Source of the DNA: a virus
DNA: 64,000 nucleotides
Virus record (IMG/VR): IMGVR_UViG_3300045988_078326
Direction: 5' to 3' (one strand)
In this document: in pieces, positions 6,271-37,536 of the stretch
Layout: every line of letters starts with the position of its first letter
How positions within the stretch are numbered: position 1 is the stretch's first letter
The notes under the pieces: generated by a model
What the model was told of the DNA's origin: nothing
Seen by the model: the letters and a program-made list of their open reading frames with translations, nothing else
Database searches by the model: none
Program-made: the position numbers and the translations under genes

Positions 6271-6279
6271 AATAAATAT

Positions 6280-12102: not shown

Positions 12103-12622
12103 AGCAGGAAGCGGTAAGGATACTATTCTCCATAGAATTATGGAGAAGTATCCTTCCTATTTCAATGAAATTATTAGTTGTACGACTCGACCTCCTAGGC
12201 AGGGAGAGAAAGAAGGAGTTAATTATCACTTCTTATCCGTTGAAGATTTTATTAGAAAAATCTTAAATGGAGATATGCTAGAGGCTACTGAATTTAATGG
12301 TTGGCACTATGGAACAGATAGTCAAAGTCTAACAATAGATAAGATAAATATAGGAGTATTTAATCCAGAAGGAGTTAGATGCTTACAGGAAGATGAAAAC
12401 ATTGAACTGTATGTATTTTATGTGCGGGCCGCGGGTAAGTAGCGTCTTTTAAGATAGCTGAATAGAGAAGAAAATCCTGATGTAGACGAAATAATTAGAA
12501 GATACAAAGCGGATACAGAAGATTTTAGTTTTCTTAATGATATAAAATATATAACTCTTTAGAACAATACCTTAGATGATATTGATATAGCTGTTGATAC
12601 TATATTTGGACAATTCTATTAA
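12071..12622 (+). CDS. gmk: guanylate kinase-like nucleoside-monophosphate kinase
   Basis: P-loop GEAGSGKDT and motif SCTTRPPRQGEKEGVNYHF. The frame continues through three TAGs (12440, 12452, 12560) to TAA 12620-12622, giving a typical guanylate-kinase C-terminus. Confidence 0.65.
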
Positions 12623-12679
12623 ATAATTATATTAGAAATCACAATATATAGTGTTCAACAAAAAATATATTACAAGGAG

Positions 12680-17880: not shown

Positions 17881-18312
17881 ATGTTTACATTTATAGCAGA
17901 ACATATAGTAGAAATTCTGTTTGGTCTAATTTCCGCAGGTGCTTTGGCTTTTTGTAGATATTTATATAAACAATTAATAGCTTACAAAAAGATGTTACAA
18001 GAGAAAGAGAATGATGATATAGCTGAATTGATTGACGAAAAGTTGAAACCTGTAGTAGAAGATATTGAAGAACTTCGAAGATATATACGGAGGATTGAAA
18101 ACAAAGAAAATCAAGACTTGACCTTAATTATAGCTTCGTATAGATTTCGACTTGTTCAACTGTGTAAAATATATATCAAACAAGGATATATGACGCAAGA
18201 TCAATATGACCAGTTAACAGAATTTTATAAACTCTATACCTCTCTTGGCGGAAACGGTTAGGCGAAAGAATATTACGAAAAAGCGATTGAGTTAGAAATT
18301 AAATCTGTATAA
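17881..18312 (+). CDS. membrane-anchored coiled-coil protein
   Basis: 126-aa ORF with an N-terminal TM and coiled coil. It continues through TAG 18259-18261 to TAA 18310-18312 (...GGNGQAKEYYEKAIELEIKSV). Confidence 0.45.
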
Positions 18313-18313
18313 T

Positions 18314-18348
18314 AAAAAAAATGGGGAACTCTTAATTGAGTTCCCCAT
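18314..18348 (-). terminator. bidirectional rho-independent terminator at the convergence of the + early and - late units
   Basis: Perfect 11-bp inverted repeat atggggaactc / gagttccccat with a 6-nt loop. It is flanked by an A7 run, which reads as U7 on the minus strand. It overlaps the stop codon of the minus-strand gene. Confidence 0.6.
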
Positions 18349-18658
18349 CCTTCTTTAAACGATTGAAAATTGAGTTAGTCATATTTATTATCTCTTGACC
18401 ATAAGTTGCTATCAAATCTGCTAGCAATTCCTCTTGTTCAAATGATAATTCTATCCCATAACTAAACATTGCAGCGTGTGTTAATTCATGACATAAAACT
18501 TTTTTCATCATCGTTGAAGATAATTCTTCATTGATATAAATACCTTTAGTTTTGCTATCGCAAGCTCCTATTGTTAATTGACCATCACTTCTAATTAACA
18601 TAGGATGAATAGGAGAAGTTAAGAATAATTTCCATTCTTCTCCATTTATATTAAGCAT
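18332..18658 (-). CDS. ImmA/IrrE-family (DUF955-like) zinc metallopeptidase
   Basis: 108 aa with HExxH in VLCHELTHAAMFSYG. Confidence 0.5.
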   Translation of the reverse strand: MLNINGEEWKLFLTSPIHPMLIRSDGQLTIGACDSKTKGIYINEELSSTMMKKVLCHELTHAAMFSYGIELSFEQEELLADLIATYGQEIINMTNSIFNRLKKDGELN

Positions 18659-19253
18659 GGTTTAAAGAAGATATTTTTGTAGCAAGAGCAGAGATCTTTT
18701 TCTCTAGGAGCTGTCTTTCTTCTGGACTTGCATCATCAATCATTTCTACTAAATCCTCACTTAATTCTTTCATATATTTGTCCAATTCTCTAATTTTAGT
18801 ATCCTTGTCTTTATGCAATTCTTTTGATTCCATATACATACGACGAGTAATTGGACTGCGGCCTTCGCGAGAATCTCTTAGTTCCATGGGATATTCTCTT
18901 TCGTTGTAATAGATTGGTTTTTCTCCATATCCTTTACGACTACCTGACATATCCTCCATGTATCTGCCTTGAGAATCTCTAGAGCGAGGATAATACATTC
19001 TGCCCCAATCGTCTCTATCCATATCTCTATCTGGAAGATAATATGGTGGCATCATTGGGATGTAATATTTCTTATGTTCCTCTTCTTTCTCCTCCATTGC
19101 CTTGACAATAGAACAGTAATACATCGCCTGTTCTAAGTCTTTTATCATATCAATAACTTCGCCTAATTCATGGGTATCTACATTATGAATATCGCTTAGC
19201 TATGATTGAACACATCCAATAAGAGTTTCTTTCATATGTTTAAGTCTTTCCAT
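18651..19253 (-). CDS. Tyr/Arg/Asp-rich low-complexity protein of unknown function
   Basis: ATG 19253 with RBS AAAGGGTGG. One in-frame TAG at 19200-19202. Extends ORF 18651..19148. The repetitive region reads ...YYPRSRDSQGRYMEDMSGSRKGYGEKPIYYNEREYPMELRDSREGRS... Confidence 0.4.
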
Positions 19254-19303
19254 AATTAAGCCACCCTTTCAATAATTAGATTTGCGTTTTGGACGTCGAT
19301 TGC

Positions 19304-19678
19304 CTAAGTAGAAATATTTTTTACGGCAATTTCAAAACAACATCCTCTTGGTACATCAATAAATATAGAACTTGCTACATTATTGTAGTCTCCTACTGCT
19401 GGAGCTGTAGATATCATAGTAGTAGAAGCTACACCTTCTCCGTTAATAGCAATAGCTAAAGAAATTGGGCCTATTGTTCCACCTGCGGCGATCGCAATAT
19501 TGCCGCTAAAGTGAGCTTTATATCTAGCTCTACACTGAGTAGATGTATTACCTTTTAATGTTACTAGTCCACTCCCAACGCGGTGTAGTAGGCTGTTGGA
19601 GCAGCCTACTACCGCATCGGTAAAAAGGACATTCTGATTAGCTTGTACTGTTTGTACGGCATTCGCAATAATTTCCAT
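19304..19678 (-). CDS. C1q/TNF-like (BclA C-terminal-like) jelly-roll domain protein
   Basis: 124 aa. The pattern NVLFTDAVVG...GLVTLKGNTSTQCRARYKAHFSG...ISLAIAINGEGVAS...SSIFIDVPRGCCFEIAVKN follows C1q-domain spacing. Confidence 0.35.
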   Translation of the reverse strand: MEIIANAVQTVQANQNVLFTDAVVGCSNSLLHRVGSGLVTLKGNTSTQCRARYKAHFSGNIAIAAGGTIGPISLAIAINGEGVASTTMISTAPAVGDYNNVASSIFIDVPRGCCFEIAVKNIST

Positions 19679-19707
19679 TGAACCAAATCTCTCCTTTTAA
19701 TTTCTAA

Positions 19708-20613
19708 TTAGCACCCGCAACTATTCATGCTATAGCAGCAGTTGGGGTTTGGTACTACGTAAGCGGGAATTGGATTATCACGACCTAATCTGCGGATGAG
19801 CTCGGCAGTTTGAGCTTCCTGATTAGCTGTAATAAAGTTATTCTGAGCCTGTTGAGATGCGGCAAGACGAAGAGCCTGATTCTCGTTTTGCAAATCAGAG
19901 ATTTTCTCCTGGCAGAGATAATCGAGAATTGCACGAGTTCCAGCGTTCTGGCTATCAATAATATCACGAGTATTATTAGCCATAGAAGTTTGAAGCGCAT
20001 TTGTATTAGTTGCTAGATTGTAGTTGACGTCGGCAAAACCTCTCTCAATCTAACGACCAGTCTCGCAGCAGCAATCTGCAATTTGGCGAGAAATAGCATT
20101 TTGATTTGTGAGATTATCAAAGCTTGCTTGCTGAATTGCAGATTTAGTATCGCAGCAACAGTTAGAGAGCTGTGTAGCCAAAGCATTTTGACCCTGCATT
20201 AAAGCTACATTAGTGCTGTTAAATCCTTGCTGTGTCTAATATCCGAGATTACATACTGCATTATCAACTCCATGGAATCCATTAGTTAAAGCATTATTCA
20301 GAGCATAAGTGCTGTCACAGATTCCCTGTTGAATAGCATTAATACCAGACTGGAGATTTTGGAAAGCAAAACCTTCATTAATGTCTGCGCGAGTTGCCCA
20401 GCCTTGGCCAGAAGGGGAGCCTAAACCATTGCTATTAGCTCCGTATCCACCAAAGCCTCCGAATCCGTTTCCCCATCCAGAGAAGCAGAATAGGAATAGA
20501 ATTATAATCCACCAAGCTCCTCCGTCATTCCAAATTCCGCCGTTGTTACGCTCATTACCACCTGTAGCAGCGGCGATGTCAGCTAAAGAGTATCCATTGT
20601 TAGAATTGAACAT
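19708..20613 (-). CDS. Gly-rich, single-TM, Cys-cluster protein of unknown function
   Basis: ORFs 20236..20613 and 19708..19983 share a frame. They are joined by sense TAGs at 20236-20238 and 20050-20052, with no other stops. It has a Gly-rich N-terminus, a TM segment WWIIILFLFCFSGW, repeated NALTNGF/NQNAI segments, and CCC motifs (SNCCCDTK, ADCCCETGR, NPNCCYSMNSCGC). Confidence 0.45.
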
Positions 20614-20637
20614 TTAAGTTCCTCCTTTAAGAAAATA

Positions 20638-20871
20638 TTAAAGGCCGAGCATTTTCTTAAAGTCAGCAAACTCCTTGTCATAGTCTAATCCTCTTTGGGA
20701 TAAAAGATTTCTAGCTATTTGTTCTATCTCTTCTGTTTTATTCTACTTGGCAAGATCTAACAAATTAGCTCCAAACGGATTATTCCCCATCTAGCTTTCT
20801 AGCATATTTAAAGTTAGTTGCTGAGGATTCTATCCATTCCTAATCATTTGAATTAACTACATTGGATTCAT
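20638..20871 (-). CDS. small hypothetical protein (about 77 aa)
   Basis: RBS GGAG 8 nt before ATG 20871. Two sense TAGs. Ends at TAA 20638-20640. Confidence 0.4.
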
Positions 20872-20883
20872 TTTATCGACTCC

Positions 20884-21309
20884 TTAAAAATCTAATTTTG
20901 GCTTTGATTCCTGCTATTGCGCTGTAGGCTACTTACTTGCCTATGGCGCAATTTTTTCTTTTAGTTGAGCAAGTACGGTTTCAAATTCTTCTCTAGTAAC
21001 ATACTGAGAAGGATTGACAACTGTTTCAACTGGAATATTCTTTAATTCATAAACATTAAGCGTTGAAGTTCCATCTAAATTTATCTATTTTGTATATATT
21101 TTTTTATTAGCTAAATCAGGAAAGAAAAATACAGAACCATCAAAGTCAATGCTAGTTGCCTTCACTTCTTCTATTGAAGAAACTGGGCGACCTTTAATTC
21201 CAATCTAGGGCTATTCCACATACTGCATCCTTTGTTGCGGTATATAAGGGACTGCCGCATACTAAGGCTGCTATTGTTGTGGCATATAGTATGGATAATT
21301 AACTGCCAT
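20884..21309 (-). CDS. Gln/Tyr-rich protein with very dense TAG usage
   Basis: RBS GGAGGTAAAACT before ATG 21309. Hand translation gives MAVNYPYYMPQQ(Q)QP(Q)YAAVPYIPQQRMQYVE(Q)P(Q)IGIKGRPV..., with about 9 TAG in roughly 140 codons and no TAA or TGA until 20884-20886. Confidence 0.45.
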
Positions 21310-21357
21310 AGTTTTACCTCCTTTAAAATATTCCCTTGGCCTTTCATTATTATATGA

Positions 21358-21407
21358 AATTTTGGCAAAGATAATTTTACTATTTTGCCAAAATTTTTGC
21401 CAATTTT
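21358..21407 (-). promoter_or_regulatory. promoter/operator region A with three copies of a TTGGCAAAA / TTTTGCCAA-type motif
   Basis: tttggcaaag (21361-21370), ttttgccaaaa (21383-21393) and tttttgccaatttt (21394-21407). On the minus strand this reads as TTGGCA, an 18-nt spacer, then TAAAAT upstream of the gene at 21309. Confidence 0.4.
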
Positions 21408-21416
21408 AGTGTAAAA

Positions 21417-21448
21417 ATATATAATGGGACATAGTAGTCCCATTATAT
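21417..21448 (-). terminator. rho-independent terminator after the holin gene
   Basis: Perfect 11-bp inverted repeat atataatggga / tcccattatat, followed on the minus strand by a U-run. The right arm overlaps the holin stop. Confidence 0.45.
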
Positions 21449-21837
21449 CATGATAGTCTGTGCTCATTAACAGCAGCTTCGATAAGGTTAGTTAAATAAG
21501 TATTTAAGTCACCAGTTGTCTCGATAATATACTGTTTTGCATCACTAGAAAGGATTTCCAATACAGAGTTCATAGTCTTATCAAATGCAATTTTCTATGC
21601 CTCTGCATCAAAAGCACCCTGTTCTTTTAAGCTATCTACATAGGTTTGATTTGTTGCTATTACACACTTAGTAATAGTATCAAATATCATAGTAGTATAT
21701 TTCTGAGCTGTTTCATTCTCTGTTTTAGAATTTAACTCATCTCGTTTTGCAGAGAGGAAATCTACGAGATATTTTGTTAGAATACCAAGCAGAGGAAGAA
21801 TACAAAGCTAGAATATTTGAATAACAATTTCAGGCAT
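21448..21837 (-). CDS. holin (LL-H / Firmicutes phage holin-like)
   Basis: RBS GGAGGAATTAAT before ATG 21837. N-terminal TM is IVIQIF(Q)LCILPLLGILTKYL. C-terminus is ...IETTGDLNTYLTNLIEAAVNEHRLS. Two sense TAGs. Ends at TGA. Confidence 0.5.
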
Positions 21838-21924
21838 ATTAATTCCTCCTTTATATTATATATAAAACAAGAGGAAGATGGTTTAACTTTATTTGACCTG
21901 CGGATTTCCATTCAAACGATCGTT

Positions 21925-22512
<588 letters not shown>

Positions 22513-22541
22513 CTTTATCACCTCATAGATATATGAAAAAA

Positions 22542-22585
22542 TGGCAATTTTATATAACAAAAATTGCCCAAAAATTTGGCAATTC
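22542..22585 (-). promoter_or_regulatory. promoter/operator region B with three copies of a TGGCAATTTT-type motif
   Basis: tggcaattttat (direct), aaaattgccc (inverted) and tttggcaattc (direct). Together they form a 26-bp imperfect palindrome GGCAATTTTATAT|AACAAAAATTGCC. It lies upstream of the recombinase and resembles region A. Confidence 0.4.
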
Positions 22586-22638
22586 GGCGTTTTGATTTAT
22601 ATAAAATTTTATTATATAATATATAAAGAAAGTGAAAA

Positions 22639-22890
22639 TTACCAGGGATAATCTCTTGCAATTAAAACATTACCTTTGGGCATAACAAAATACATTTTGC
22701 CTTGTCCAAATGAATAATCCACGGAACTTCCATCCTCTAATAAATAAAAAGAATCTGAAATACCTGGAGATATATTTTTACCACTATAAACTATCTCTCC
22801 TGGAGATGCTCTTAATGGGAATTCATATTTAAAGCCTGACTTATCTATTATAGAATATCTTTCCGTTTGAGCGCTTGAATTAAAAATCAT
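22639..22890 (-). CDS. hypothetical protein
   Basis: 83-aa ORF with RBS GGAGGTAGTAGAAA. Confidence 0.4.
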   Translation of the reverse strand: MIFNSSAQTERYSIIDKSGFKYEFPLRASPGEIVYSGKNISPGISDSFYLLEDGSSVDYSFGQGKMYFVMPKGNVLIARDYPW

Positions 22891-23287
22891 TTTCTACTAC
22901 CTCCTATAAAATAATATACAGTCGTATACTATCAGTTGGAGTTATTAATGCTTTAAAAGTTAATTCATCCAATCCTTGATTAATACATAATATCCCAGCA
23001 TTAAAATATACTTCTTGAGATTCAATAGTTGGCATTACATAAATTAGCTATTTGCTTTCATCTGCGAGTACACCTGGAACCATTACTGTGCAGGTGTCAT
23101 CAGACCATTCAGATTCAAGAATAGCAATAAGTATAGCCTTCGGTTTAAGAGCTGTATTTGCTAAAATTTCATTAAATTCTTGTTCAGTTCCAGTAAACCC
23201 TCCTTCTTTAGCTGTTTCATAAGCAGACTTTCCATTGAGACCGGGCTGACCTATTCCGGCTACTTTCTTACCATTTATTTTAATCAT
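22880..23287 (-). CDS. small tail-fibre protein with collagen-like GxxG segment and SAYE...GF.GTE motif
   Basis: ORF 23048..23287 is (MIKINGKKVAGIGQPGLNGKSAYETAKEGGFTGTEQEF...). It continues through a sense TAG to about 22880. RBS GGAGGTAAATATAT. The low-coordinate end is approximate. Confidence 0.45.
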
Positions 23288-23308
23288 AATATATTTACCT
23301 CCTAAATT

Positions 23309-23951
23309 TTAATTACTACTTCCACCACCGCCAGAAGTAATTGTAGCAGAGTCAATAATTTTATATGCTATAACTTGACTATTATTATTTATCTGTATAG
23401 CACCTAATGCTTTGTATGCAGACTAAGGAGTAATTTTAAGTCCTGAAGAAGAGCCGCCGTTTATAGTTAAAATACTATTTTTTATTACTTTATAATTATT
23501 TTTCTACACTACCCATACTGACATTGGTGCATTTTCATGTTCTATTATTACTGTGCATCCACTTACGCCTGATAATGATTCAAATGTAATATCTACTGTT
23601 TCTATTGGAGTTTCAGTCTCAATTTGACTTATATTTTCTGCCATCTATTGAAAGCTATCGGTCGCCGCAGTTTCTATTCCCTTGTCAGTGACTGCGGTCG
23701 CTATTAGGGTTTTGCCCTCACTGACATCTGTAAAAAGTTCATCTATGGCCTCCTAAACATTGGTAGCGGCCATGCTCGAGGTGCTATTGTTATACTCTAT
23801 CAACGATGCAGTTAGACTTTCATTTTCTTCTTCATCAAATTCGATAGTGTAAGGTCCAACTCCCAAAGATTCTCCCATTTCTGCAATACCACCGCCCGGC
23901 ACAGTAATGGCATCTTTGTTCTTAACCTATCCAGTTAAAATACATTCCATG
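23309..23951 (-). CDS. tail-fibre N-terminal-domain protein
   Basis: RBS GGAGAAATTTTC before ATG about 23951. Hand translation gives ...TASLIEYNNSTSSMAATNVQEAIDELFTDV..., the NVQ.A.DEL motif common in Firmicutes phage fibres. Ends ...SGGGGSSN with TAA. Several sense TAGs. Confidence 0.45.
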
Positions 23952-24267
23952 AAAATTTCTCCTTTCATTTTTAAAAAAGTACACTTTACTGAACTTGGTC
24001 AAACATATATAATCAATCTATACTCTTTTTCAAGTATATTTGAAAAGAGTAAGATACTCACTTTTGGGAAAAGGGTTTCTTACCCTTTTCCCAATTTTTT
24101 GTTATCTAGGAAGAAAAAGTATTTTTCCTGTTAAAAAGTGTACTTTTTCTCGGAAATTGTTTATGGCTTTCTAAAAGACTGGAGCGAAGATCGCTTCCAT
24201 CCTCGACCTTCTATCTAGTAGTTTAGATTTGTTTGAAACAATAGCTAGATAGAAGGAGGTAAATAAT
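23952..24267. promoter_or_regulatory. divergent control region between the minus-strand fibre/lysis unit and the + strand retroelement island
   Basis: Direct repeats aaaagtacacttt (about 23977) and aaaagtgtacttttt (about 24133). Perfect hairpin gggaaaagggt/acccttttccc (24066-24092) followed by a T6 run. Inverted repeat ctatctag...ctagatag (24211-24254). RBS GAAGGAGG before the target gene. Confidence 0.4.
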
Positions 24268-26034
24268 TTGCCTAAATGTATTTTAGCTGAATAGGGTGGA
24301 AAAGGTGGAGGTTCTCTTTCTCTTGTAAAAATTGAAGTAACCACTCCCCCTACTAAAACGAGCTATCTTGCTGGTGATACTTTTAATCCCGCGGGAATGG
24401 TAGTCACCGCATCTTACGGCGTGGACGGCGTTATTGTAACAACAGCAGAAGTAACTGGGTATCAAGTTACTCCAAACCCTTTAACTGATGGGGTTACTAA
24501 AGTAACAATTACTTACTCTGAATCAGGAGAAACTTGTTAGACCACTCAAGACATTACTGTTATTCATAAACTTCTTAGTATTTAGGTTACTACTAACCCA
24601 ACTAAGACAACTTATGAATATGGAGACACTCTCCAAACAACAGGAATGGTAGTTACAGCAAGTTATTCTGATAGTACATCATCCGCGGTTACCGGGTATA
24701 GTTGCTCTCCAACGTCATTAACTGCGGTTGGCACCTAGAAAATTACTGTTTCTTACACAGAAAATGGAGTAACTCAGTCTGCTTCTTTCAATGTTACTGT
24801 TGAAAGAAAATCGGTGCCGAAACCAACATGGAAGAATAATCTTACCTATACTGGTAGTAGCCAATCAGTAAGTGGTGCTTCCTATTGGAATAACTTTAAT
24901 ACCACTTATATGACGATTGGCGGGACAACTTCCGCGACTAACGCTGGAACCTATACTGCTACTTTCACACTAAATAGTAATTATAGATGGGCCGATGGAA
25001 CTACATCAAATCTTGATGTAAACTGGACTATCAATAAAGCTGCTGGGACTTTAACAGTAAGTCCAACTTCTGTAGCTCTTGATGGAGATAACTATAGTGC
25101 AGGCGTAAAAGTTACTATTACCCGTCCTGGAGATGGAGCTATTAGTTATAGCCCAACTAGCGTTTCTGGCTTAACTTTATCTTTAAGTGGGAACGTTCTT
25201 ACAATTAAAGGCGACGGTAGTACAGCTATTTCTTCTACAACTATTACTATCAAGGTTGCAGCAGGAACTAACTATACGGCTCCAAGTAATAAAACTGTTA
25301 CAGTAACAGCTAGCTATTGGGAGTGGGGATCTGAAACTGCTGTTGGTGATGCTAAATGGTGGGCTGGATTAAAAACATGGGCCGCTAAGGCATCATCTGG
25401 AGAGCGACAAAATTGCGTAGGTAAGACTAAAAGAGTAAGTTTATCATCTTCTGTTTTAGGTGGTAATCAAGTATTAATGAGATGCGTTGGCGCAGATTAG
25501 GATGGAACAGGAACTTTAGCTTTTAATGCTGTCTCCGCTCTTCCTAATTCTACAGATTTTGGTAGCAATGCAATATGGATTGGATCAACTGCTAGAGATC
25601 TATGTCAAGATTTCTATAACCGCTGTAGCGCGAAAGATTCTATTAAGACAGTAAAGAAGGGTACTTGTCCTAGTACAAATAGCTCTAGAAATGGTTCTGT
25701 AACCTATAATGATGAAACAGTATTCTTATTATCCGAAAGAGAATACGGATTAGATTCTTACTCTCCTATCTCCACTTCAAACAGTACTACCTCTAAAGCA
25801 GAGTGTACTCAAGGTTATAATGCTGCGTATAGTTACTACACAAGCAACTCTAGAAGGGTTATGTACTTAGGAGATGCAAACGGTAATCCAACTAGCTCAT
25901 ATGTGTATCAATGGGAGAGGTCCCGTTACTACAACTACTCGTACAACGTTTGCTATGTCGACACCGATGGTTCTGCGAACTACACCGGCTACAACATCAG
26001 CCGTGGGCTCGCGCCGGCTTTCGTTATCGGATAA
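24268..26034 (+). CDS. retroelement target protein: Ig-like (Big) repeats plus C-terminal C-type-lectin-fold domain carrying the variable repeat
   Basis: TTG 24268 after GAAGGAGG. The frame is continuous through sense TAGs (24292, 24538, 24583, 24736, 25498) and contains ORF 24814..25500. Repeated domains read VTT(N)PTKT.Y..GDT....GMVVTASY. The C-terminus ...ECTQGYNAAYSYYTSNSRRVMYLGD...YNYSYNVCYVDTDGSANYTGYNISRGLAPAFVIG ends with TAA at 26032-26034. Confidence 0.8.
25919..26017 (+). repeat. retroelement variable repeat
   Basis: 99 bp aligned without gaps to the template repeat. All 14 mismatches lie at template adenines. Ends in the GC-rich box gggctcgcgccgg, 15 nt before the target stop. 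Confidence 0.9.
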
Positions 26035-26115
26035 CACAATAAAATAACAATTCGGGACAGTTAAGATTAAATTGTCCAACTAAAATTTTATATATTCAAG
26101 TGAGGGAGATTTTAA

Positions 26116-26610
26116 ATGTCTGTAAAAGTAAAAGATAGACACATATCAAAGCAAGATTGTCTTTATAAAGCACGCGACTTAATGGGATATATTTTAGTCT
26201 TAACTCGTCCTAGAGAATATGATAAGGATGGAAAACAAATTTGTAAGCCTGGACTGCTTGGAGAGGGTCAACCTCTTCAAGCGTTCGGGTACGATATAAT
26301 TAAGTGCGGAAAGGGCTTACATGCTTGCTGTTATGAGGCATGTAAGATAAACTTGAAAGACAAAGAAACCCTTGCAAAGAGAAATGACTATCATAATAAA
26401 GCACTAGAATATTGTGATAGTATATTTCGACAAATCGACCTATGTATTTATTAGTATGCTCAGAACAGCAAAAAGAAAAGACGCTCTTTTGAACATCTAG
26501 CTAGATTGACAAAGAGAGTAAAAGAGTCAATCCAAGATAGAAAAAATAGAGATAAACTTATAACAGAGCATAGATATTCAGCTCCTAAGAGATATAGGAG
26601 AGGTCGATAA
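26116..26610 (+). CDS. avd: putative accessory variability determinant (Avd-like)
   Basis: About 164 aa from ORF 26116..26454 extended through sense TAG 26452-26454 to TAA 26608-26610. Basic C-terminus. It sits between the target and template repeat, as avd does in canonical cassettes. Sequence similarity to Avd is not clear by eye. Confidence 0.35.
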
Positions 26611-26641
26611 TATTTTTCTACGGTTAAGTTCTGTATCTTTC

Positions 26642-26740
26642 GGTCCCGTAACTACAACAACTCGAACAACGTTTGCAATGTCAACAACGATGGATCTGCG
26701 AACAACAACAACTACAACAACAGCAATGGGCTCGCGCCGG
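26642..26740 (+). repeat. retroelement template repeat
   Basis: ggtcccgtaactacaacaactcgaacaacgtttgcaatgtcaacaacgatggatctgcgaacaacaacaactacaacaacagcaatgggctcgcgccgg. It is AAC-rich, and the variable repeat differs only where this repeat has A. Confidence 0.9.
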
Positions 26741-27051
26741 ATTAGATGGAGCTATCATGTTGCGAGTTAAGCTGCGGAGCAGCGCAAACGAGCAACGCCT
26801 AAATAGTACCCCGGAGTATATTATTATCCATCTAATTAAGGTTTACTCTGGATTGCACTCACTTTATGTGGGGAAGAGATTGAGAGACCATTAAAGAGCT
26901 TTGCTCTACAACTATCGAATAATATACTATAGGTAGATCTGCCTTTTCATCTAAGGAGAACTTAACCATTTCACTGAAAAAGTGGATAAAGTAAGACTGT
27001 AGACGTGGAGCTCGAGTAGCTACCACTATAGCTACATGATAAGGAGAAAGT

Positions 27052-28176
27052 ATGTCTGAAATAAAACAAGATACTGCTTTCGAGCGTTTTTGTAGTTTTG
27101 ACGCTATGTATGAGGCGTCTTATAAGGTATGTCGAAACGTTCGATGGAAAGATAGTACAATTAATTTTGGAGAGAATAGGATAGAAACAATTTTAAAAAC
27201 AGAAGCTGACCTGCGAGCGTGTGAATACGAACAGCTTGTGTTTAGTTGTTTTTCGATAATCGAACGAGGCAAACCAAGAGATATAAGAGCGTGTCATATC
27301 AACGACAGACTGGTACAAAATGCGTTATGTGAACAAGTTTTGCTACCAGAATTAACTCCTAGATTTATCTATGATAATTGTGCAACCCTAAAAGGAAAGG
27401 GAATAGACTTCGCTCTGGAAAGAGTTAAGAAACATCTCCAATAGGCTCATAAAGAGTATGGGTTAGGAAAAGATTTTTATGGATTAAGAATTGATATACA
27501 GAAATATTTTGATTCTATTGACCATGAATCTTTAAAGAAAGCAGCTAAACGGCTAATAAAAGATAAACTTGTTTATTAGTTATGTTGTTACTTGATAGAT
27601 ACATTTTCTTTTAAGCTAACAAAAGACACTTCGCCTATACCCGGTAAAATATATTACACAAGTAAGCGACACAAGTATGAAAGAGTTAATGTTACTCATT
27701 TCTAGCCTGGTCGTAAGTATTATGAATATGAAAGAAAGAGCCTGGGATTAGGAAGTCAAACGTCACAATTATTCGCATTGCTAGCATTGAACGAAATTGA
27801 CCACTTCATAAAAGAAGAGTTACATATTAAGTATTATGGTCGTTATATGGATGATTTATACTTGCTCCATAATGACAGTAAATACTTGGCCGAATGTGAG
27901 AAACAAATAGAAATTCGCTTAAATAAACAAGGATTAAAGATGAATAAGAAGAAAACTACTATCACTAGAATTTCTCCTATTCACGCAGATGGCGAACGCC
28001 ACGCTCCTTTTAAATATTTAAAGTGGAATTTTCATCTCACAGAAACTAATCATATAATACAACTTCCTTTCAAGAAAAAAGTAGCTCATCAGCGCAGAAA
28101 ACTAAAGAAAATGTAGGCTTTATGGTTAGATAATAAAATTTCAACTGAAGAAGTTTAGAAATCTTATTAGGGCTGA
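27052..28176 (+). CDS. retroelement reverse transcriptase
   Basis: ORFs 27052..27444 and 27778..28116 share a frame and are joined through sense TAGs. Reverse-transcriptase motifs 1-2 sit in the N-terminal part, plus YYGRYMDDLYLL (YMDD). It continues past TAG 28114 to TGA 28174-28176. RBS AAGGAGA. A hairpin gtagcta/tagctac lies just upstream. Confidence 0.85.
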
Positions 28177-28268
28177 AGGGCGCATATTTCTAAAGGAACT
28201 TGCTTTTATATAATTCAGGACATGGACAATTATTTTCGTTCATTATTCAAAGGAGTTGAAATAAAGTA

Positions 28269-28931
28269 ATGTATATTCTATTAAATAGAGAGAATATAGT
28301 AGTTGATATTCTTTCAGAAGCACGTTACATTAAACTGCAATCCTCAAATGGTATTGTCGTTGCCTGCGAGGAAGAAGAGGGAACTGGGGTTATCGGCTCA
28401 GATAGTGATACTCATTACACTCTAGTCAAAGCCGATGTATTAAATCAACCTAATGCTGTTACAGTATTAGAGTTGGAAACAATTCCATCAAACGTCATTC
28501 CTAACTATTCAAAGTATAATCAAGAAGATGGTACTTTCATCGCTGATTTAGATTAGGCAAAATATGATAAACAAGAGGAAAACAAGAAACTATTCGCAGA
28601 GTATCTTGCTACCCACCCGTTAACTTGGGTCGATGGAAAAGAATATGGAATTACGTAGGAGGACCAATCTGAGATTAGCTTAAATCTCAATCAATTCTAG
28701 GTGGCTGTAGCTGCTGAAGTAGAAAATCCTACGCTTGAGTGGCACGCTCGACACGAAGAGTGTGTACCATGGACTTTAGAGCAATTATCCGCTCTAAGTT
28801 TAGCTATTTCTAATGCGGTATATCCAAAATACCACTTAATGCAAGAATATAAAACCTAGATATTTGGAGCTAATTCAATAGATGAATTAAAAGCTATTGA
28901 ATTGAGTTATGAAGACACAGACAGCGAATAA
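28269..28931 (+). CDS. hypothetical protein
   Basis: ORF 28269..28556 continues through several sense TAGs to TAA 28929-28931 (about 220 aa). Confidence 0.4.
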
Positions 28932-29367
28932 AAATATAATTCTATTCGTAGTAGGAGGAACTCTATATTACAGTATAGAGTTCCTCTATAAAACTTTTAT
29001 TAGCCTTGGAGTTTGTCATTGGTCTATGTTTTTGCTAGGTGGCTTATGCTTTCTATTAATTGGACTAATGAATGAGAATATTCTTTGGGAAGAATCTATC
29101 TTAACTCAAGGAGTAAAAGGATCTTTAATTATAACTGCTTTAGAATTAATTTTTGGATTAGTTTTAAATATAAGACTAGGTTTAGGTATTTGGGATTATT
29201 CTAACATTCCACTTAACTTTATGGGGCAGATTTGCTTGCCCTTCTCTATTGCATGGTTCTTCTTGAGCCTTTTAGCAATAGTGTTAGATGATTACCTTAG
29301 ATGGAAATGGTTTGGAGAAGAAAAACCGCATTATCACTTATACAGTAGACCTCCTTGCGAGGAATAA
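28909..29367 (+). CDS. polytopic membrane protein
   Basis: 152-aa ORF with 4-5 predicted TM helices. Confidence 0.45.
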   Translation: MKTQTANKNIILFVVGGTLYYSIEFLYKTFISLGVCHWSMFLLGGLCFLLIGLMNENILWEESILTQGVKGSLIITALELIFGLVLNIRLGLGIWDYSNIPLNFMGQICLPFSIAWFFLSLLAIVLDDYLRWKWFGEEKPHYHLYSRPPCEE

Positions 29368-29421
29368 AAAAAATAGGGAGAACCTTAATTAAAAGGTTCT
29401 CCCTATTTTTTTTTTATTTTA
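29366..29421. terminator. bidirectional rho-independent terminator
   Basis: Perfect 14-bp stem atagggagaacctt/aaggttctccctat, preceded by an A8 run and followed by a T10 run. It separates the + island from the minus-strand fibre gene. Confidence 0.65.
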
Positions 29422-30196
29422 CATCAATAATAACAATAGCAATATCGCTTTCTGGTTTATCTTTTGTGTAGAAAGTGATTCCAGATCCTACAGTTGCATC
29501 AGCATGATCAATTTTACTATATTCCTCTAAATTAGAAGTATAAGTAATGATAGGTGGCACATTTCCCGCTTTTCCGCAAGTTAAAGCAGTATTAGAGTAT
29601 GTCTATGTATACATATCTCCGTTCAATACCCATGATGCCGCGGCAAGAGTGGTTGTATAAGCTACAGATGTGCTACCAGTAATTTGGTTATCTGTTTCTG
29701 ACTTGCTATATACATCCAAATTAGTTCTGGCTCGCGCGGCTGTCGTGCCTCCAGTTCCTCCAACCTAGATTGGAAGTGTACCAAATGTAGGTGCACCCGC
29801 AGTAATCGCGTATAAAGCACCAGCACCTTGTAAACCAGCCACACCATTTTCCGCATTTCCGATTACTAAACTGCCGGCTGCAATTTCAATCATTTTTAAT
29901 GCTTCTGTTCCATTTCCTACTAGCAAAGCATTAACAGTTAATGTATCATGTCCAGTTCCACCCTACGCTACAGTAGCAGTCATATTTTTAAGAAAAATGT
30001 CGTCAATATCAATTTCAGTAACATTATTCTTTAAAACTTGAGCAGCATAGGCATTGACCTGTAGACGTCCGCCCTCTATATTACTTACATCAATAAATAA
30101 ATTTCCTGTGTCCTCGCAGAAATAGGCGTATCCTTCATGAAGAGGTACATCATTAAGATCCTCTTCTGCGCCTTTAAAAATCTTAAATAAAGCCAT
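29414..30196 (-). CDS. tail-fibre protein with GGTG..TAA.AR.NL motif
   Basis: ORF 29963..30196 (MALFKIFKGAEEDLNDVPL...) continues through sense TAGs to TAA 29414-29416. It contains ...PIQVGGTGGTTAARARTNLDVYSK... Confidence 0.5.
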
Positions 30197-30229
30197 TTTA
30201 GGCCCTCCTTTATACTCTCTAAATATAAA

Positions 30230-32140
30230 TTAAGGTATTAAATCACTAAAACTTCCCCAAGATAGTAATTCTTCAATCTATGTTGCAGAATATGTCTATC
30301 TATCCTTATTTGTAATAGTTCCACCTATTAAGCTATTAATATAGTGAATACTGTAAGTTTTATTTGTTACTTCTCCACCATCTTCACTATTATAACTATT
30401 ATCAATAAGGTTAGAAATACCGCCAGTTAGCTAGACTCTTCCCCACACTCCATCTGCGGCTTTATAATACCAGTAAGAAGTTTCTTGGTTAGTTTCATAT
30501 TCTACCCACGTAATAGAGAAAATATCCTACGCGCTAATTTCTCCATCATAGTTTTCTTCAATATAATCTACACCATTCTATAAAGAATCTTTTAGCGTGT
30601 CTGTCTCATTTATTGTGTAGCTCTTAACGATATTAAGAGCCTCGCCAACAGGGCCTTTTAAATTGCCGGAATTTTTCTCCCATATACCAGAAGAATTTAA
30701 TTCATATATATCTCCGGTTTCTGTATTTAAATATAAATCTCCAGCTTTCGCACCCTCAATAACAGTAGATGTTGTTGAATCAGAAATCTAAGTTCCAGAG
30801 TATAATTTTGATCCTCTAGGAATCTTAAAATCAATATTTATAGTGTCATCTGCTGTAATTTCATTGGATACAGAGCCAGTTTCGTCAATTCCAACAAAAG
30901 CAAATGAAGTAGTGTATTTAACCGCGGATGGCAGCCCAAAAACTAGCTTCCAGGCAGTTTGTTCTTCGTTAGTAAACTCCCTTGTAACCGTAGGAATTGT
31001 CGGCTCAAACTCAGAACCTTTATCTGTATATGGCTTTAATTCTGTAACTTCTATAGTAGGAAGAGGAGACTAAATACAAGCTATATACTAAAAAGTACAA
31101 GTGGTTCCAGTTTTATTGATTACTTTATAAATAAAACCGGTTGGTGCATTAATGTAATAATCACCAACATTATAATCCACAAAAGAATCATTAGTTTCTT
31201 CGTAAGTTCCTTCTGTTCTCTCGCCTAGTAACTCGCCATAGTAAAATTTAACCGCTTCTGGTAAACTAAATTTCAATACTGGCGCATTAATATTCGAATC
31301 ATCCATTACTACAGATGGATTCTCCTCGGGTCCCACTACCGTAGTTTCTGGATCTCCCATCACCTAACTTTGAGGCAAGAAGAAATTAATAATTGGATTG
31401 TTTATATCATCAAAATTTATTTCAAATCTAGGTTTTTCATTAGCATCTAAAGTTGTAGTAATACCTTCCTATAATGACTAAGATACAGGTAGATAAAACT
31501 TAATTGCCGGTTTGTTGATAGAATAATCTCCTGAAACTTCTAAAGATACTCTTGGATTTTCACCTACATCTAATAATTCTACTAATGCAGTATTAATTAC
31601 CTAAGATTGCGGTAAGGACAACTTTAAGCTAGGATTATTTATATCGGTCGTGTCTAAAGACGCTTCTGGAAGTTCATTACAATCCAGAATAGTAGTCTCT
31701 CCTAACTAGATATTCTAACTCTATGGTAACTGAAAAGTAAGCCAAAGTCTATCTAGATCGGTATTATCCCAAACCACGTTTGGATCTTCATCTGCATCCA
31801 AGACTTCTGTGTCATTTAAGCTAATTCTTGGTGTATTACCAGTCATGGAAGCTATCATCTTATAGTATAGGCCGCCCGCAGATCCGCTTCCATCTTTATC
31901 ATTATAACATTTTTGCCAAAGAGTAGAGTTATAGCTTTTCCCATAATTCTATAAATCTTCATTCTTATAAATATCATAGTTTGTATCGCTTGGCAAACCA
32001 TATGATACAACAACGAGATCACCTGGGAAGATAGAAGATGTCCAACCCTTTGATAAATCTCTATCCATCTAATATTTGCTAGTAAAGATTTCCTTAATAT
32101 CAAAATCTCTACCTTTAGGTCCTCCATAGAAACTTTCCAT
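30230..32140 (-). CDS. large tail fibre / baseplate repeat protein (about 636 aa)
   Basis: RBS GGAGGTGTCAAACT before ATG 32138-32140. Same frame as ORF 31088..31363. Repeat units ...LKLSLPQSQ / KFYLPVSQ / NFFLPQSQ / KFSLPEAV occur. Ends at TAA 30230-30232. Many sense TAGs. Confidence 0.45.
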
Positions 32141-32154
32141 AGTTTGACACCTCC

Positions 32155-34666
32155 TTATACATAGATAAAATCAATAATAACATTATACAAATCCTAATAG
32201 TTCTCTGGAGCATCAATATTATCAGGATTGGGTAACACATATATACCGTTTACACCCTAATTATACAAACTTAATGCTGTCTAATAAGCCTCTATATAGG
32301 TAGTCTAAATATTATTATATGAATCCCAGTAAGCTCTATATCCCTCTGGATCTGTATCCGGGTCTGGCATAACTGGATTTTCTTTATAAAATTGTTCCAA
32401 ATCGTCTGCTCGTTTTTTATCCGCAGCCTACATTCCTTCAGTTCCCTACTCAATCGCCTACTAGGAGGCTTCTTCATCTTTTTCATACTTTCTAGGTCTA
32501 ATAAAATACATATTAGTAATAGCTATGTCATCATCTAGTTCATATATTCCAGTTCTACCAACCATAATAGTCTTTGATTCATTCATAACTATTTTTGTGC
32601 CGGCAGGAGCCTATACCCCAACTTTATTAAATTGAGAGGCTCCTACCTAGGCAATAATATCACTAAATATATTCTACCCACTAGAGACGTAGCTACCACT
32701 GTTATTATCTATTACATTATAATATACTTGACCAACAGTTGGCATTATCTCCTACTCCTCCTTATACTCTCGTTAATACTTCCGTTGCAGTAATGCTCAT
32801 AGTTCCATTATAAGCAAGAGGCAAAGTAAACTGAGTTATCTAGTAATTTCCACTAATGCCGCTATCTTTATCTTCAATATAGAGAATATTATTTGGCTCC
32901 ATATAATACTTTGGTAAGCAAGTAATAGATATGGTTGTATTATAATTTAAATTCTAATACAACATTTCTCTAATCTTATCAAAACAACTCGCATTAGTAG
33001 AGCTTATTGAAAATAAATCATAGTATTCAGAAGTAAGAACAAAAAATCTCTAACCTATCCCTCGATATTCTGCTATCAAGTCCTAATCAAGTCCTTCAAT
33101 AAAAATAATATCAGGGGCTTCCATATTATATACGGAAGTTATATCAGAACCATTAACCACTTTAGTCCTTCTGCCTATTTCATTTATTGAATATTTTCCC
33201 ATCTCTGAACCCGTATCTATAAAATCTAACCAATAGTTCAAATTTTCTGGATTGTTAAAAACATCAGGGTTCCAATGATCGTATTCATCCCATTTCTCAT
33301 TCAATGGATCATATAAATTACGCCATTCCGCGATTAATTCGGAATCATAGTAGTTATCATATACGCTATTAGTTACCTGCGCATTTAATGCTCTACGGTA
33401 CAGCTCTTCTCGCCACTCATCACATGGAGACCCGATTAATTTTGTTTCATATCCAGATACAGAGTAATCACTAGCTATATTATTAAAATCATATCTTACT
33501 ATTAGTCCAGTTTCTTTATCACTAATAGCCCACATATAATACCCAGCCAAATCTATAATAGGTTTGGTATCAATAGCTAAATGGTATCTAATGTCCACTT
33601 CTACATCAGATGTAGTTTTTCTTTTACCCCAAACATAAAAATCATTTTTAATATTATCAAACTTTGGACTGCGGGTTATCGCAGTCGTGGTATCAAGCTC
33701 GGTTAAAGAATATAAGAATTTAGCATTATTATAACTCTTTACATAGTTTGCTGGCGTAAGTTCAGTTAAAGGGCTTCCAGTATTAAGATAGTTCTTTATC
33801 TCCTAAAAGATAAAACGACCGTTTATATCATAGAAATATTCAAAATTTCCAAGAACATCCACTATCTTATCTAGTAATGCAGTTACAGTATCACCAGCAT
33901 CTAAAATCAATTCACCGGGATATGTAAATTCTGTTTCTTTATATCCAGCATCCTATCCATAGCTTACCATATGCGGGAAGTCTGAGCTGGGAGAGAAATC
34001 CATACTCTCATAATTATTACTAAAATATACTGGTTTGTCACCAATATACTTAACCAACATTTTACAGGTTTCCTCTATATCTGTAATAATTATATTCTCT
34101 ATAGCTTCCCCTCCCCAGTGGTTTACCGCTTCATATATAATCTGGAATATGGTCGGATATACAATCTCTATATCTCCATCATTCTTCTATATGTAACTTT
34201 CATGGAGGGTAATAGAACCTGGAAAGGTACCTCCCGCAGTTCCATCTAATAAACACATCTTATCTTTTCCATTTATAGAAATTGTCCATCCAGAAGTCGA
34301 TCTTGCTATTGATGCATTAGACAAGACAAATAGTCCGCAAGGAAACCAAATTATATCTCCATAACTAGAATAAGATCTTAAGGGGTTATTATATCCAACA
34401 AACACTTTAACCTTTTTGTTTATCGAAATCTCGTTATCTATATTCTCTATATCGCTATTATTTCCATCGGCTAGCATAGTTAAACTAATTGTTCTGCGCA
34501 CTGAAGATGAACCATTAACACTTAAACTTCCTGCTGTTATGCGACCTTGTATCTCTCTAATAGGTTTTTCATCGAAAGAAAGCAAAATAATTTTCGCATA
34601 ATGGGTTTTAATGTTTAACTTATCAAGGGCAGTAAGAAATTCCATATCGTTTAAATAATCAAACAT
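32155..34666 (-). other. tail-associated protein region (prophage-tail / Tal-like N-terminal domain); gene boundaries unresolved
   Basis: ORF 34187..34666 (MFDYLNDMEF...DIIWFPCGLFVLSN...) and ORF 33083..33598 share a frame. The 3' end near 32155 lies in another frame, so this span holds one or two genes. Confidence 0.35.
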
Positions 34667-34670
34667 AATA

Positions 34671-37448
34671 CTATTCCACCTTCATACGCATTTGATTTGT
34701 TAAACACTTATAGTTTATTACACAGAATTGAGCGCTTTCTAGAGCGATATATTTAATCATATTATCCAATGGGTTAAGTGTATATCTCCCTGTGGGACCG
34801 ATTTTTACAGTAATAGGATTACTTCCATCAGCATTTGAGCTAAGAAGAATAGTAGTTCCTTCGTCTGCTTCTATATCGAACAAAGTAATATCACTAAAAG
34901 TGTAATAAATCTCTCCGTCTGTTAGCTGTCCATCGCTACTTAATTCAAAGTGTGTATTATATATAAGCTCAACTTGCTTTTGTGTCTCTTCTTTTATTAT
35001 CTCGTAGATATTTACCGTTTTATATAGATTAAAAGTCGTATTATCAACAATAATATCTCCTTGTTTATCCCTAACTAGAAATTTTTCCATATTCGCAGGA
35101 ACATTACTAAATATGCGATATGTGTCACTATTCTTATAATCATAGTTATAAAACTTTAAAACACCATCTGTTCCTGTAAATATTCCAGAAATCTAACCCC
35201 AAATACGAGAAGCATCAATAGCAGAAACAACTCCCACTGAAACATCTTCAACCTAATTTAACTGACAAACATAATTCACAATAATAGGAACTGTTGATGC
35301 AGATAGAGATAGAGAATTAACATTCTCACTTAAATGATACATTCTACCTGGTGCAACTAAGATCCTTGAACCATTAACATTAATTTCAATAGTCGCAGAT
35401 TCAGGCCCATCAAGAGCAAGAATTAAATTTTCACATTCCTCAATCTATCTATCATACTCAGAAGTATCTTCTTCATTACCTGCGGCTTCCGCTCTAAGAG
35501 CTTCTAATTCTAGTAGCTACGCGGTTAGATCTATCTTTGGGTATTGTTCAACTAGGATATCAGTAACCTAAACTAAGTTTAGTTTATACCCTCCACCTAT
35601 GCTAACCTCTTCCTATTCTCTTATCTTTGCGTATAAGTCTATATTTCGACCATAAATTCCGCTTATCTGCCCAAAGGAATTTATTCTATCTTCGCTTGCT
35701 AAACTCTCAAATTCACCAATATCAATTATATTAACTTCATTTAAATTTTCTATGGTGTTCTCTAATACTTCATATGCCGTAGCAGAAAAAGAATAGAGCA
35801 TGCGGCCGACCGTATTATTCGGAGTCAAAGAAATATTAAGCAAGCCTATAACTATATTCCCTTCGGTTGGAGACTTAAATAATTTATAGTTAAAATCATT
35901 TAAAAATTCTTCTACCTTTTCTCTAAAAGCTCTTTCAATGAAAACATTATCATCTGTTAAATCAGTTGAAATAGATAATTTACTCTCATTAGTTGAGACT
36001 TCTGAATGAGTTGTCTATCTCTCTTGACATTTTCCTCTAACCACATTTTTGATAGTAAACTTATCTTCTGGGATTGCAAGTTTGCCATTATAATAAAGGC
36101 CATCATCATCTAGAGAGAAGAATGTCTAATATTCATCCATCTAAAAACTAATCAAACCAGAAATAGGAAATTCTGCATAGTAAGCATTACCATTCTAAAT
36201 TAAATGAGGGTATTTATCTCCTAAAGTATCCTATTTACTTCTTAAAGTGGTATGTTTAAAGCTGGATAAGGTTTGATTGAGTGATAGTTTTAACTATACT
36301 CCATCTCTATAAATATAGCTGTGCTCAAAATCAACACTACGACCTTGGTTAGAGGTTTCATATACCTAGGAAGTCCGCAATCCTGCGGAGTTCTCTTGCT
36401 ATATAGCGTATTTGTATCTAATTCCGCTTTCAATAATAAAATCGGTATAGATTAGTGAATCGTTCAAAACCTAATTAGAAAATTTAAGATACTTCAAATC
36501 TTCCCATATCTAATAATTATCTTTCTCTGAACTTCTAGTTATTACATAACTTCCACTTAATCCATCTTTTGCTGTGCAAAAAATCTTTATACAACCATTC
36601 TCTTTGCAATATATATCGCTATCTTCAACTCTTATAGATACTCCTTCTAAATCACCTAGATAAGTTCGACTAACAGAAAAATTATACTAATCAGACTCTC
36701 CCTCATAACCATTGACGGTAATAATAGAGTACACAACAGTATAATCTTCACTATTAGTTAATACTGTTTTAAATCTATGAGTATCTGTATTATTAATAGA
36801 GCCATTATGCTAGATCCACCCAGAGCTTTCGATTAAATCACTGAGATCCTACGAAGAACCTTTGTATAAATCAAATTTATATTTATCCAATAATTCATTA
36901 CTACTAGATTCAATCTTGTAACTGCCAATAAATAGCGGTGTTAAAGTTGCTTCTACTCGTTCTGTAGATATAACATCTTCTCGCTTTGCCTCGTCGTTTT
37001 CTATAATAATAGTCGGAGTATCTATCGCTTTAATTACCATTACAGTAGACCATTCAGAGAAAGCTCCTTCATCTATTTGCTATTGTTTCCATGTTGCAAA
37101 TTCATCTACCGAGGTATACATAGGATTAATTCCAAAGCGCATCTGCACTTTATATAAATACCCTGGCTACCAAGATTCGAACAATTCATTTTTATTGATT
37201 GATACAAAATACTAATTGCCCAGGGAACCAATAGCAGAGGGTGCTTTATAGATTGTCCCATCTGGGTATTGATTTGTATTAACAATGCTTTTATTATTCG
37301 ACTAACGCACTATTCTTACCTATATATGTCCTATATCATTAAAAGATGTAATTGACTGTAAGGTAAAATAGATTTGATATACATTCACACTGGCTAGAAA
37401 CGCTGGCTATGTGCTCTACAGAGTAGGCGGGTAAATACTAATTGGCAT
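34671..37448 (-). CDS. large baseplate / structural protein (about 925 aa)
   Basis: RBS GGAGGCGTTAACT before ATG about 37448. ORFs 36849..37040, 35613..35843 and 34671..35090 all lie in this frame and are joined by sense TAGs, with no TAA or TGA. Confidence 0.5.
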
Positions 37449-37536
37449 AGTTAACGCCTCCTTTTTCTCATCTAAGATATTTAAAAAATCTTATATCATT
37501 AATAAAGATAATTGGCCAAAAGGCTGACGAGTTTTA

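Follow-up and report, generated by a model that had tools for sequence, protein, structure and literature searches.

A diversity-generating retroelement in the tail-fibre module of a human gut phage that most likely reads TAG as glutamine

The diversity-generating retroelement (DGR) of the Bordetella phage BPP-1 comprises a target gene ending in the variable repeat (VR; mtd-VR), the accessory gene avd, the template repeat (TR) and the reverse transcriptase (RT) gene brt, in this order. Its TR and VR differ at TR adenines only, the VR occupies the last codons of a lectin-fold protein of the receptor-binding type, and both repeats close with a GC-rich box behind which they diverge (initiation of mutagenic homing sites, IMH and IMH*). 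The accessory protein is a basic four-helix bundle and the RT carries the motifs IGxxxSQ and YxDD. For the TR-containing RNA, whose TR-RT spacer measures 140 nt, a template:primer duplex by the 3' end of the TR, a stem-loop downstream of the TR and a 'stop' duplex joining upstream and downstream sequence were described, and the same elements were predicted in 207 other DGRs. Work with persistent gut phages recoded at TAG reported an RT with several in-frame TAGs beside a recoded tail-protein target, the VR of which resides at the 3' end of the gene and changes over time, and likewise an RT loss that was followed by VR stasis (Lou et al., bioRxiv 10.1101/2023.08.07.552389). The domain DUF6273 was described, by modelling, as a C-type-lectin-like DGR target domain (PMC10743442), and DGRs with DUF6273 targets are found in small phages of Clostridia (33-60 kb; nd4/nd12 with their 'tentaclins', Faecalibacterium and Roseburia phages). 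The Phassvirus group (phAss-1, OQ749652) comprises TAG-recoded gut phages of about 135 kb which use TAG as Gln mostly in virion genes and for which Clostridia hosts are predicted; the terms 'DGR', 'reverse transcriptase' and 'retroelement' occur 0 times in the paper on phAss-1. Among gut phages, 85.7% of the RT-bearing high-quality genomes have a TR-VR pair. Here we describe a locus from the IMG/VR virus record IMGVR_UViG_3300045988_078326, of which a stretch of 64,000 nucleotides (the window) was analysed, and read its positions 24268-28269 as a DGR in the tail-fibre module of a gut phage of about 147 kb that reads TAG as Gln, a reading to which we assign a probability of roughly 93%.

Each of the BPP-1 features named above finds a counterpart at this locus, for the RNA elements by analogy, and the gene order of target with VR, gene in the Avd position, TR and RT is that of BPP-1, as an earlier note made from the letters of the window had proposed. 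The core of the element consists of the following features.

24268..26034, plus strand: DGR target gene, 588 codons, TTG start 8 nt past AAGGAGG, five in-frame TAG
25300..26031, plus strand: C-type-lectin-fold variable domain, with a Pfam DUF6273 match at 25561-26028
25919..26017, plus strand: VR, the last about 33 target codons before APAFVIG and the stop codon; 36 variable sites in 99 bp among conspecific genomes
26005..26017, plus strand: GC-rich box GGGCTCGCGCCGG, IMH-like, at the 3' end of the VR; the next base is C, where the TR has A
26116..26610, plus strand: accessory gene in the Avd position, 164 codons, one in-frame TAG (26452), isoelectric point 9.7, predicted four-helix bundle
26642..26740, plus strand: TR, 35 adenines, 15 AAY codons; invariant in 11 conspecific genomes except for position 26727, which is private to the window
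27052..28176, plus strand: RT gene as read in the window, 374 codons, six in-frame TAG, ending at a TGA private to the window
28177..28269, plus strand: remainder of the RT gene, in frame, 30 codons plus TAA (RAHISKGTCFYIIQDMDNYFRSLFKGVEIK and stop); the TAA overlaps the next ATG

On realignment, TR and VR were found where the earlier note had placed them, with 99 bp each, an offset of 723 nt and no gap. They differ at 14 positions, at all of which the TR carries A and the VR T, C or G; as adenines make up 35 of the 99 TR nucleotides, the probability of all 14 differences falling on A is 6.1e-8 (hypergeometric). Thirteen of the substitutions, one more than counted before, affect the first or second base of an AAC/AAT codon, and the remaining one is a silent GGA>GGT. 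Read in the VR frame, the 15 Asn codons of the TR make about 1e20 peptides possible. The sequences flanking the two copies are unrelated to each other, and an independent repeat search over 18000-30500 returned this pair and no other long direct repeat, while a search of the 64-kb window with all TR adenines set to N (at most 12 mismatches) returned no VR besides the known one. Both copies end with the GC-rich box GGGCTCGCGCCGG (VR 26005-26017, TR 26728-26740) and then diverge in the IMH/IMH*-like manner that had been noticed earlier. The base right after the box is A in the TR and C in the VR, in the window as well as in each of the 20 relatives listed, and since this difference is kept across relatives it points to a fixed boundary rather than to mutagenesis. 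The TR of the conspecific contig L047 carries the VR-type base C at this position.

Comparison with related genomes provided a view on the activity of the element. In IMG/VR, 40 loci were found with RTs that share 58-90% identity with that of the window, and 33 of them possess a TR/VR pair of their own with adenine-only or nearly adenine-only mismatches. Twelve relatives that share one identical TR carry 12 different VRs, in which 36 of the 38 TR-adenine positions vary as compared to 2 of the 65 other positions, with every variable site in codon position 1 or 2. Where lineages differ within the GC box, each TR shows the same change as its cognate VR, meaning that the two copies co-vary at non-adenine sites. 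Ten contigs encoding the exact product of 28909-29367 share 99.0-99.8% identity with the window over 12.5 kb, and among the 11 conspecific genomes 36 of 174 variable columns fall into the 99-bp VR, 34 of these 36 at TR-adenine positions, which is the kind of adenine-restricted variation that the earlier note had proposed to look for. Expressed per 100 bp, the VR holds 36 variable sites versus 0.3-1.7 elsewhere. The TR is invariant among the 11 save for a C>T at 26727 that is private to the window, and the VR position 26004 is T in the window alone; as the TR change is mirrored in the VR, template information must have entered the VR in the window's own recent lineage. As far as assembled genomes can be compared, these data show DGR activity and suggest that mutagenic homing is ongoing.

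Some further observations concern single relatives. The VR of L046 (about 3035-3110) contains a 3-nt insertion relative to its own TR, and in the VR of L009 (4845-4947) an in-frame TAG was created by two non-adenine changes. About 60 variable sites were moreover found among the 99% identical genomes at 30400-31300, within the gene at 30230-32170 (minus strand), an unannotated reading frame of the late cluster that adjoins a tail-fibre-like gene. These sites form two haplotypes, one shared by the window and L045 and the other by the remaining nine contigs; as a candidate for a second hypermutation target the region was rejected and is considered a two-haplotype recombination tract.

The RT, which the earlier note had rightly located downstream of the TR by its YMDD, matches Pfam RVT_1 and carries LGSQTSQ (27748-27768), corresponding to the DGR-type motif 4 [ILV]GxxxSQ, ahead of YMDD at 27844-27855. 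With its motifs aligned it is 25% identical to BPP-1 Brt (E 4e-17), and the best match of its family profile among the solved structures in the PDB is the BPP-1 DGR RT (8ub7_A, 7.7e-18), as compared to 6e-11 for group II intron RTs. Its assignment to the DGR type is based on these motifs and on closeness to known DGR RTs, in place of a phylogenetic tree. The nearest RTs in cultured or deposited phages (27-35% identity) include those of Roseburia, Faecalibacterium and Vibrio phages, several of which presumably carry DGRs. An origin from a group II intron or a retron, named earlier as the finding that would speak against a DGR, gained no support, as NCBIfam scores stay below the cut-offs (group II RT 72 versus 300 bits, retron RT 31 versus 235) and Rfam, consulted for group II intron or retron RNA, matched nothing in the whole 64-kb window. 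An insertion of about 35 residues relative to Brt is located between motifs 3 and 4 (27600-27740, FKLTKDTSPIPGK...YYEYERKS) and occurs throughout the family.

The target protein begins with the motif (M)xKCILxxQ, which is found likewise in the homologues P0109-P0119, and continues with two Big_3 Ig-like domains, beta-rich repeats and the C-terminal lectin-fold domain; its in-frame TAGs are located at 24292, 24538, 24583, 24736 and 25498. Both genes neighbouring the target match tail fibre proteins among the PHROGs. The model of a close homologue predicts a lectin fold for the variable domain and, together with the DUF6273 match, bears out the earlier proposal that the VR encodes the last about 33 codons of a lectin-like C-terminus. 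Positions 24064-24094, upstream of the target and within the intergenic region between the divergent genes, form a terminator-like hairpin with a T run behind it.

The accessory protein, encoded between target and TR, is small and basic and was predicted, by modelling a close homologue, to consist of four long helices (pLDDT, i.e. predicted local distance difference test, 88.8). Searches of Pfam, NCBIfam, PHROGs and PDB profiles returned no family match even at E 10, hence neither the Pfam family 23S-rRNA-IVP nor the NCBIfam four-helix-bundle family, which define Avd at the sequence level, was hit. A comparison with bAvd by hhalign gave a probability of 0.2% and no sequence similarity, and in an exhaustive profile search of 1.84 billion representatives the most distant relatives were likewise free of Pfam and NCBIfam matches. 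The family comprises 26 clusters at 50% identity. Of the earlier proposal of an Avd-position gene, position, fold and charge thus stand while membership in the Avd sequence family does not, and the protein is Avd-like by fold, charge and position only.

The spacer between TR and RT is about 310 nt long, conserved and structured, and together with sequence upstream of the TR it contains the following elements.

26622..26632, plus strand: upstream arm of a duplex bracketing the TR, GGTTAAGTTCT, about 20 nt upstream of the TR, pairing with 26957-26967
26741..26750, plus strand: ATTAGATGGA, directly 3' of the TR on the IMH* side, candidate template strand of a template:primer duplex
26759..26796, plus strand: stem-loop GTTGCGAG..GCTGC-GGA-GCAGC..CGAGCAAC, helices 2 and 3, with compensatory changes in 8 of 11 pairs
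26827..26836, plus strand: TCCATCTAAT, complementary to 26741-26750, candidate primer strand, paired in 96% of cells
26945..26967, plus strand: invariant TTTCATCTAAGG plus AGAACTTAACC, the first part an alternative partner of 26742-26751, the second the downstream duplex arm
26998..27036, plus strand: covarying hairpin directly 5' of the ribosome-binding site of the RT, helices 5 and 6, 9 of 11 pairs compensatory

RNAalifold yielded 37 pairs, 21 of them with compensatory changes, and 94.8% of the cells are paired; none of 500 shuffles reached the observed values, and slid controls were paired to 27-50%. The best-supported helices are the composite stem-loop 26759-26796, which may be the positional analogue of the Avd-binding stem-loop in other DGR RNAs, and the hairpin 26998-27036. 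The duplex bracketing the TR is formed by GGTTAAGTTCT and by AGAACTTAACC (26957-26967), the latter following right after an invariant TAAGG; as tested by shuffles within each lineage, it recurs in six lineages at the same relative positions with different sequences (combined P 6e-9). Directly 3' of the TR, GATTAGAT is invariant in all relatives and, extended by GG, pairs either with TCCATCTAAT or with TTTCATCTAA (26945-26954), both pairings being kept in 96-99% of cells. Only the pairing with 26827-26836 gives a duplex starting exactly at A26741 and hence abutting G26740, with which the sequence common to TR and VR ends. The partner of 26741-26750 may be either 26827-26836 or 26945-26954. In BPP-1, the analogue of this candidate template strand would be TR118-129:Sp47-56. 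The three features, i.e. candidate template:primer duplex, stem-loop after the TR and upstream-downstream duplex, are supported by covariation and would correspond to the BPP-1 RNA elements, their functions being assigned by analogy only.

The genes for target, accessory protein and RT contain 5, 1 and 6 in-frame TAGs, respectively, and have open frames only when TAG counts as a sense codon; in an open reading frame (ORF) list made with the standard code all three are in pieces. The earlier note had thus recognised three genes that are indeed present at the places given, and had overlooked the code that their frames require. Opening TAG yields ORFs of 2905 codons (104 TAG), 1324 codons (33) and 944 codons (27) and doubles the total long-ORF length, and opening TGA instead results in little change. 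In the alignment of the window RT with its relatives, TAG columns are occupied by Gln in 34% of the other cells versus 3.2% background. The Gln in these columns and the long TAG-open ORFs indicate that the phage reads TAG as a sense codon, which according to the alignment is most likely Gln (code 15). With in-frame TAGs in all three genes, translation of the element needs amber suppression, as does that of the phage's other late genes. Relatives carry 0 to 17 in-frame TAGs per gene and, given this range, the TAGs look like a property of late genes and not like a DGR-specific device. Virion genes hold up to 104 in-frame TAGs (e.g. 42652-51366, 38680-42651 and 34659-37490, all on the minus strand), and most replication genes (578-14869) 0-2, with the exception of a RecJ-like gene at 3709-5463 that contains 13.

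The suggested mechanism builds on what was observed directly, namely the adenine-only pattern, the VR- and adenine-restricted hypervariation, the co-variation of TR and VR, the RT type, the folds and the RNA covariation. It assumes that RNA reaching from about 20 nt upstream of the TR through the spacer of about 310 nt folds into a scaffold, in which the duplex 26622-26632/26957-26967 would bracket the TR, the stem-loop 26759-26796 would follow it and 26741-26750 would pair with 26827-26836 or 26945-26954. By analogy with BPP-1, priming would occur in cis, and the RT would act together with the basic four-helix-bundle protein in copying the TR from G26740 with misincorporation opposite adenines. 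The resulting complementary DNA (cDNA) would replace the VR at 25919-26017, whereby up to 15 Asn (AAY) and four other codons in the tip of the lectin fold, and thus of a putatively receptor-binding surface, would be re-randomised. Finally, a private W375>TGA in the RT may just have switched off this particular copy and frozen its VR.

For the repeats themselves an ordinary duplication was considered, which would have diverged by point mutation or recombination beside an unrelated RT (of a retron, a group II intron or a defence system). The NCBIfam models for group II, Drt and retron RTs do match, if weakly and below threshold, which is accounted for by the shared RT fold only; the group II score lies far under its cut-off (72 versus 300 bits), Rfam offers no group II or retron RNA, and the RT family finds its best solved-structure match in a DGR RT. 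Moreover the adenine-only asymmetry (P 6e-8) recurs in 33 relatives, variation among the 99% identical genomes is confined to the VR, and real recombination, as found next door at 30400-31300, appears as a two-haplotype block and not as a unique sequence per genome. A duplication of this kind is hence regarded as already refuted. The possibility that a serine recombinase (21889-22596, minus strand) inverts a segment of 328 bp and thereby switches between the DGR target and the divergent fibre-like gene is judged to be very improbable as well. It was raised by a 21-nt inverted repeat (23926-23946/24275-24295, 90% complementary), which brackets the intergenic region between the two divergent genes and reaches into the first codons of either gene, and by the resolvase/invertase-like ORF, itself with in-frame TAGs, at a distance of 1.3 kb. 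The intergenic segment, however, has the same orientation in more than 30 related loci with no inverted copy among them, the repeat is explained by the N-terminal peptide xCILxxQ that both genes have in common and that is present in homologues too, and repeats of similar quality arise by chance in the same region.

Closest to even odds, if somewhat short of them, stands the idea that the DGR was freshly inactivated in the window, so that a TGG>TGA change stops the synthesis of new cDNA and the VR is the frozen record of the last homing event. The RT frame ends here with TGA at 28174-28176, where all 10 conspecific contigs have TGG and where the family alignment shows Trp in the other lineages and Phe in L030; in intact relatives the RT ORF reaches the position of 28269 and encodes 392-409 residues. 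Position 28176, taken by the earlier note as the end of the region, is therefore a premature stop private to the window and not the stop codon of the family. Of the 31 residues lost, 17 do not vary within the family, whose overall identity is only 62-79%, and the 30 codons past the TGA are still in frame and unchanged, which fits a very recent lesion. Independent RT lesions are found in L005 (6001-7218, CGA>TGA at codon 55) and, as a 1-nt insertion at nt 483 leading to a stop at codon 166, in L036 (6001-7219) and L039 (1077-2296), and the RT loss with subsequent VR stasis described by Lou et al. provides a precedent. Set against this, a single-base change (G>A) known from an assembled contig may stem from faulty sequencing or represent a minority variant, the 31 C-terminal residues, for which a function is only presumed, did not align to Brt, and the VR still received a copy of the TR change at 26727, from which it follows that the RT was at work until very recently. 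As a stop codon TGA is leaky, and some full-length RT may hence be made. An exact-pattern scan of IMG/VR for the TGA/TGG site gave no match, and the contig represents either a just-acquired nonsense mutation or an error or minority allele. The VRs of the RT-lesioned L005, L036 and L039 are nevertheless well diversified, with 21-22 adenine mismatches.

Further points weigh against the reading of the locus as a DGR at work. Activity was derived from assembled contigs and not from reads or experiments, and with the RT stop 31 codons ahead of that of the family the frame of this copy is not intact, so that the copy may be inactive. The accessory protein bears no detectable sequence relation to Avd, and four-helix bundles draw many unspecific fold matches. 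The lectin fold was modelled on a homologue of 65-68% identity, as the window protein is interrupted by TAG. ARAGORN detected neither a suppressor tRNA(CUA) nor any other tRNA gene in the 64-kb window, the genome measuring about 147 kb. A conserved DNA hairpin or cruciform 3' of the VR, which BPP-1 requires, was not found either, the weak AT-rich hairpin at 26055-26077 being not conserved (fold z-scores of -0.75 to +0.31 in four lineages); such a hairpin is not known to be universal among DGRs. Beyond the DGR as such, two undescribed layers of control were contemplated and are doubtful: amber suppression would confine hypermutation to the late, TAG-reading phase, and the spacer would be a conformational switch in which the 26827-26836 pairing poises priming, while the 26945-26954 pairing would stack on the duplex bracketing the TR and clamp it shut. 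If this held true, the recurrent RT knock-outs (window, L005, L036/L039) would be a third off switch at the population level.

Downstream of the RT, the plus-strand unit continues with two genes and is closed by a terminator.

28269..29367, plus strand: two co-oriented genes conserved beside the RT in relatives, a 220-codon gene and the gene of a 152-codon membrane protein
29366..29413, no strand assigned: perfect inverted repeat of 21 bp flanked by A and T runs, a bidirectional terminator at the end of the plus-strand unit

The 220-codon gene (28269-28931) has four in-frame TAGs and weak matches to DUF4376 and to a tail-fibre PHROG; it is conserved in intact relatives, where it overlaps the RT stop (TAATG), and it may encode a cassette-linked protein for fibre assembly or with an accessory role. 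The exact product of 28909-29367 occurs in 1158 recorded data blocks, most of them on contigs of 50-200 kb, and the phage is very common in the human gut. By eye, DnaB-, primase-, RecJ-, Pol III alpha-, NrdD-, portal- and capsid-like proteins as well as a tape-measure-like protein of 2904 residues were recognised in the window. A megablast of 24 kb against deposited phage genomes gave no match; going by the major capsid protein, the assignment of which is indirect, the nearest described phage is phAss-1 (OQ749652), with 51% identity. Contigs of 147-149 kb with RTs 86-89% identical to that of the window were binned in Oscillospiraceae and Eubacterium metagenome-assembled genomes (MAGs), a weak indication that the host probably belongs to the Clostridia. 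Two of the phage contigs found contaminating MAG bins are CALWOP010000177.1 (148,971 bp) and CALCFD010000051.1 (147,780 bp), our L053 and L054.

Compared with the described systems, the element differs from that of BPP-1 by an accessory protein lacking sequence similarity to bAvd, the longer spacer, the RT insertion between motifs 3 and 4, the missing hairpin 3' of the VR, a target of 588 residues with Big_3 and DUF6273 domains in place of Mtd, in-frame TAGs and a host that is probably of the Clostridia. The phages of Lou et al. have different genomes, the RT quoted there is not similar at sight to the one reported here, and its lesion is a 502-nt deletion as opposed to a point nonsense change. 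With the DUF6273-target phages of Clostridia the window shares the type of variable domain, which is N-terminal in the tentaclins and C-terminal here, and the RT identity of 28-35% amounts to only about a third. The best match of the window RT in the whole phage collection is 35% identical, and no similarity to phAss-1 was found at the DNA level.

As DGRs are common in gut phages and were already reported in TAG-recoded ones, the DGR described here is of a well-known kind, and the general picture of DGRs is left unchanged by it. The novelties are modest and consist of an orphan Avd-like family, RNA elements supported by covariation and natural RT knock-outs. Each of these can be put to use: the accessory-protein family is one that annotation pipelines miss, the covarying helices carry the BPP-1 RNA model over to a distant DGR, one of phages whose hosts are probably Clostridia, and the knock-outs allow for studying a receptor-binding protein once diversification stops. 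The locus is a clean and well-documented case from nature of a DGR acting in an abundant gut phage, near-identical genomes of which differ almost only in the VR.

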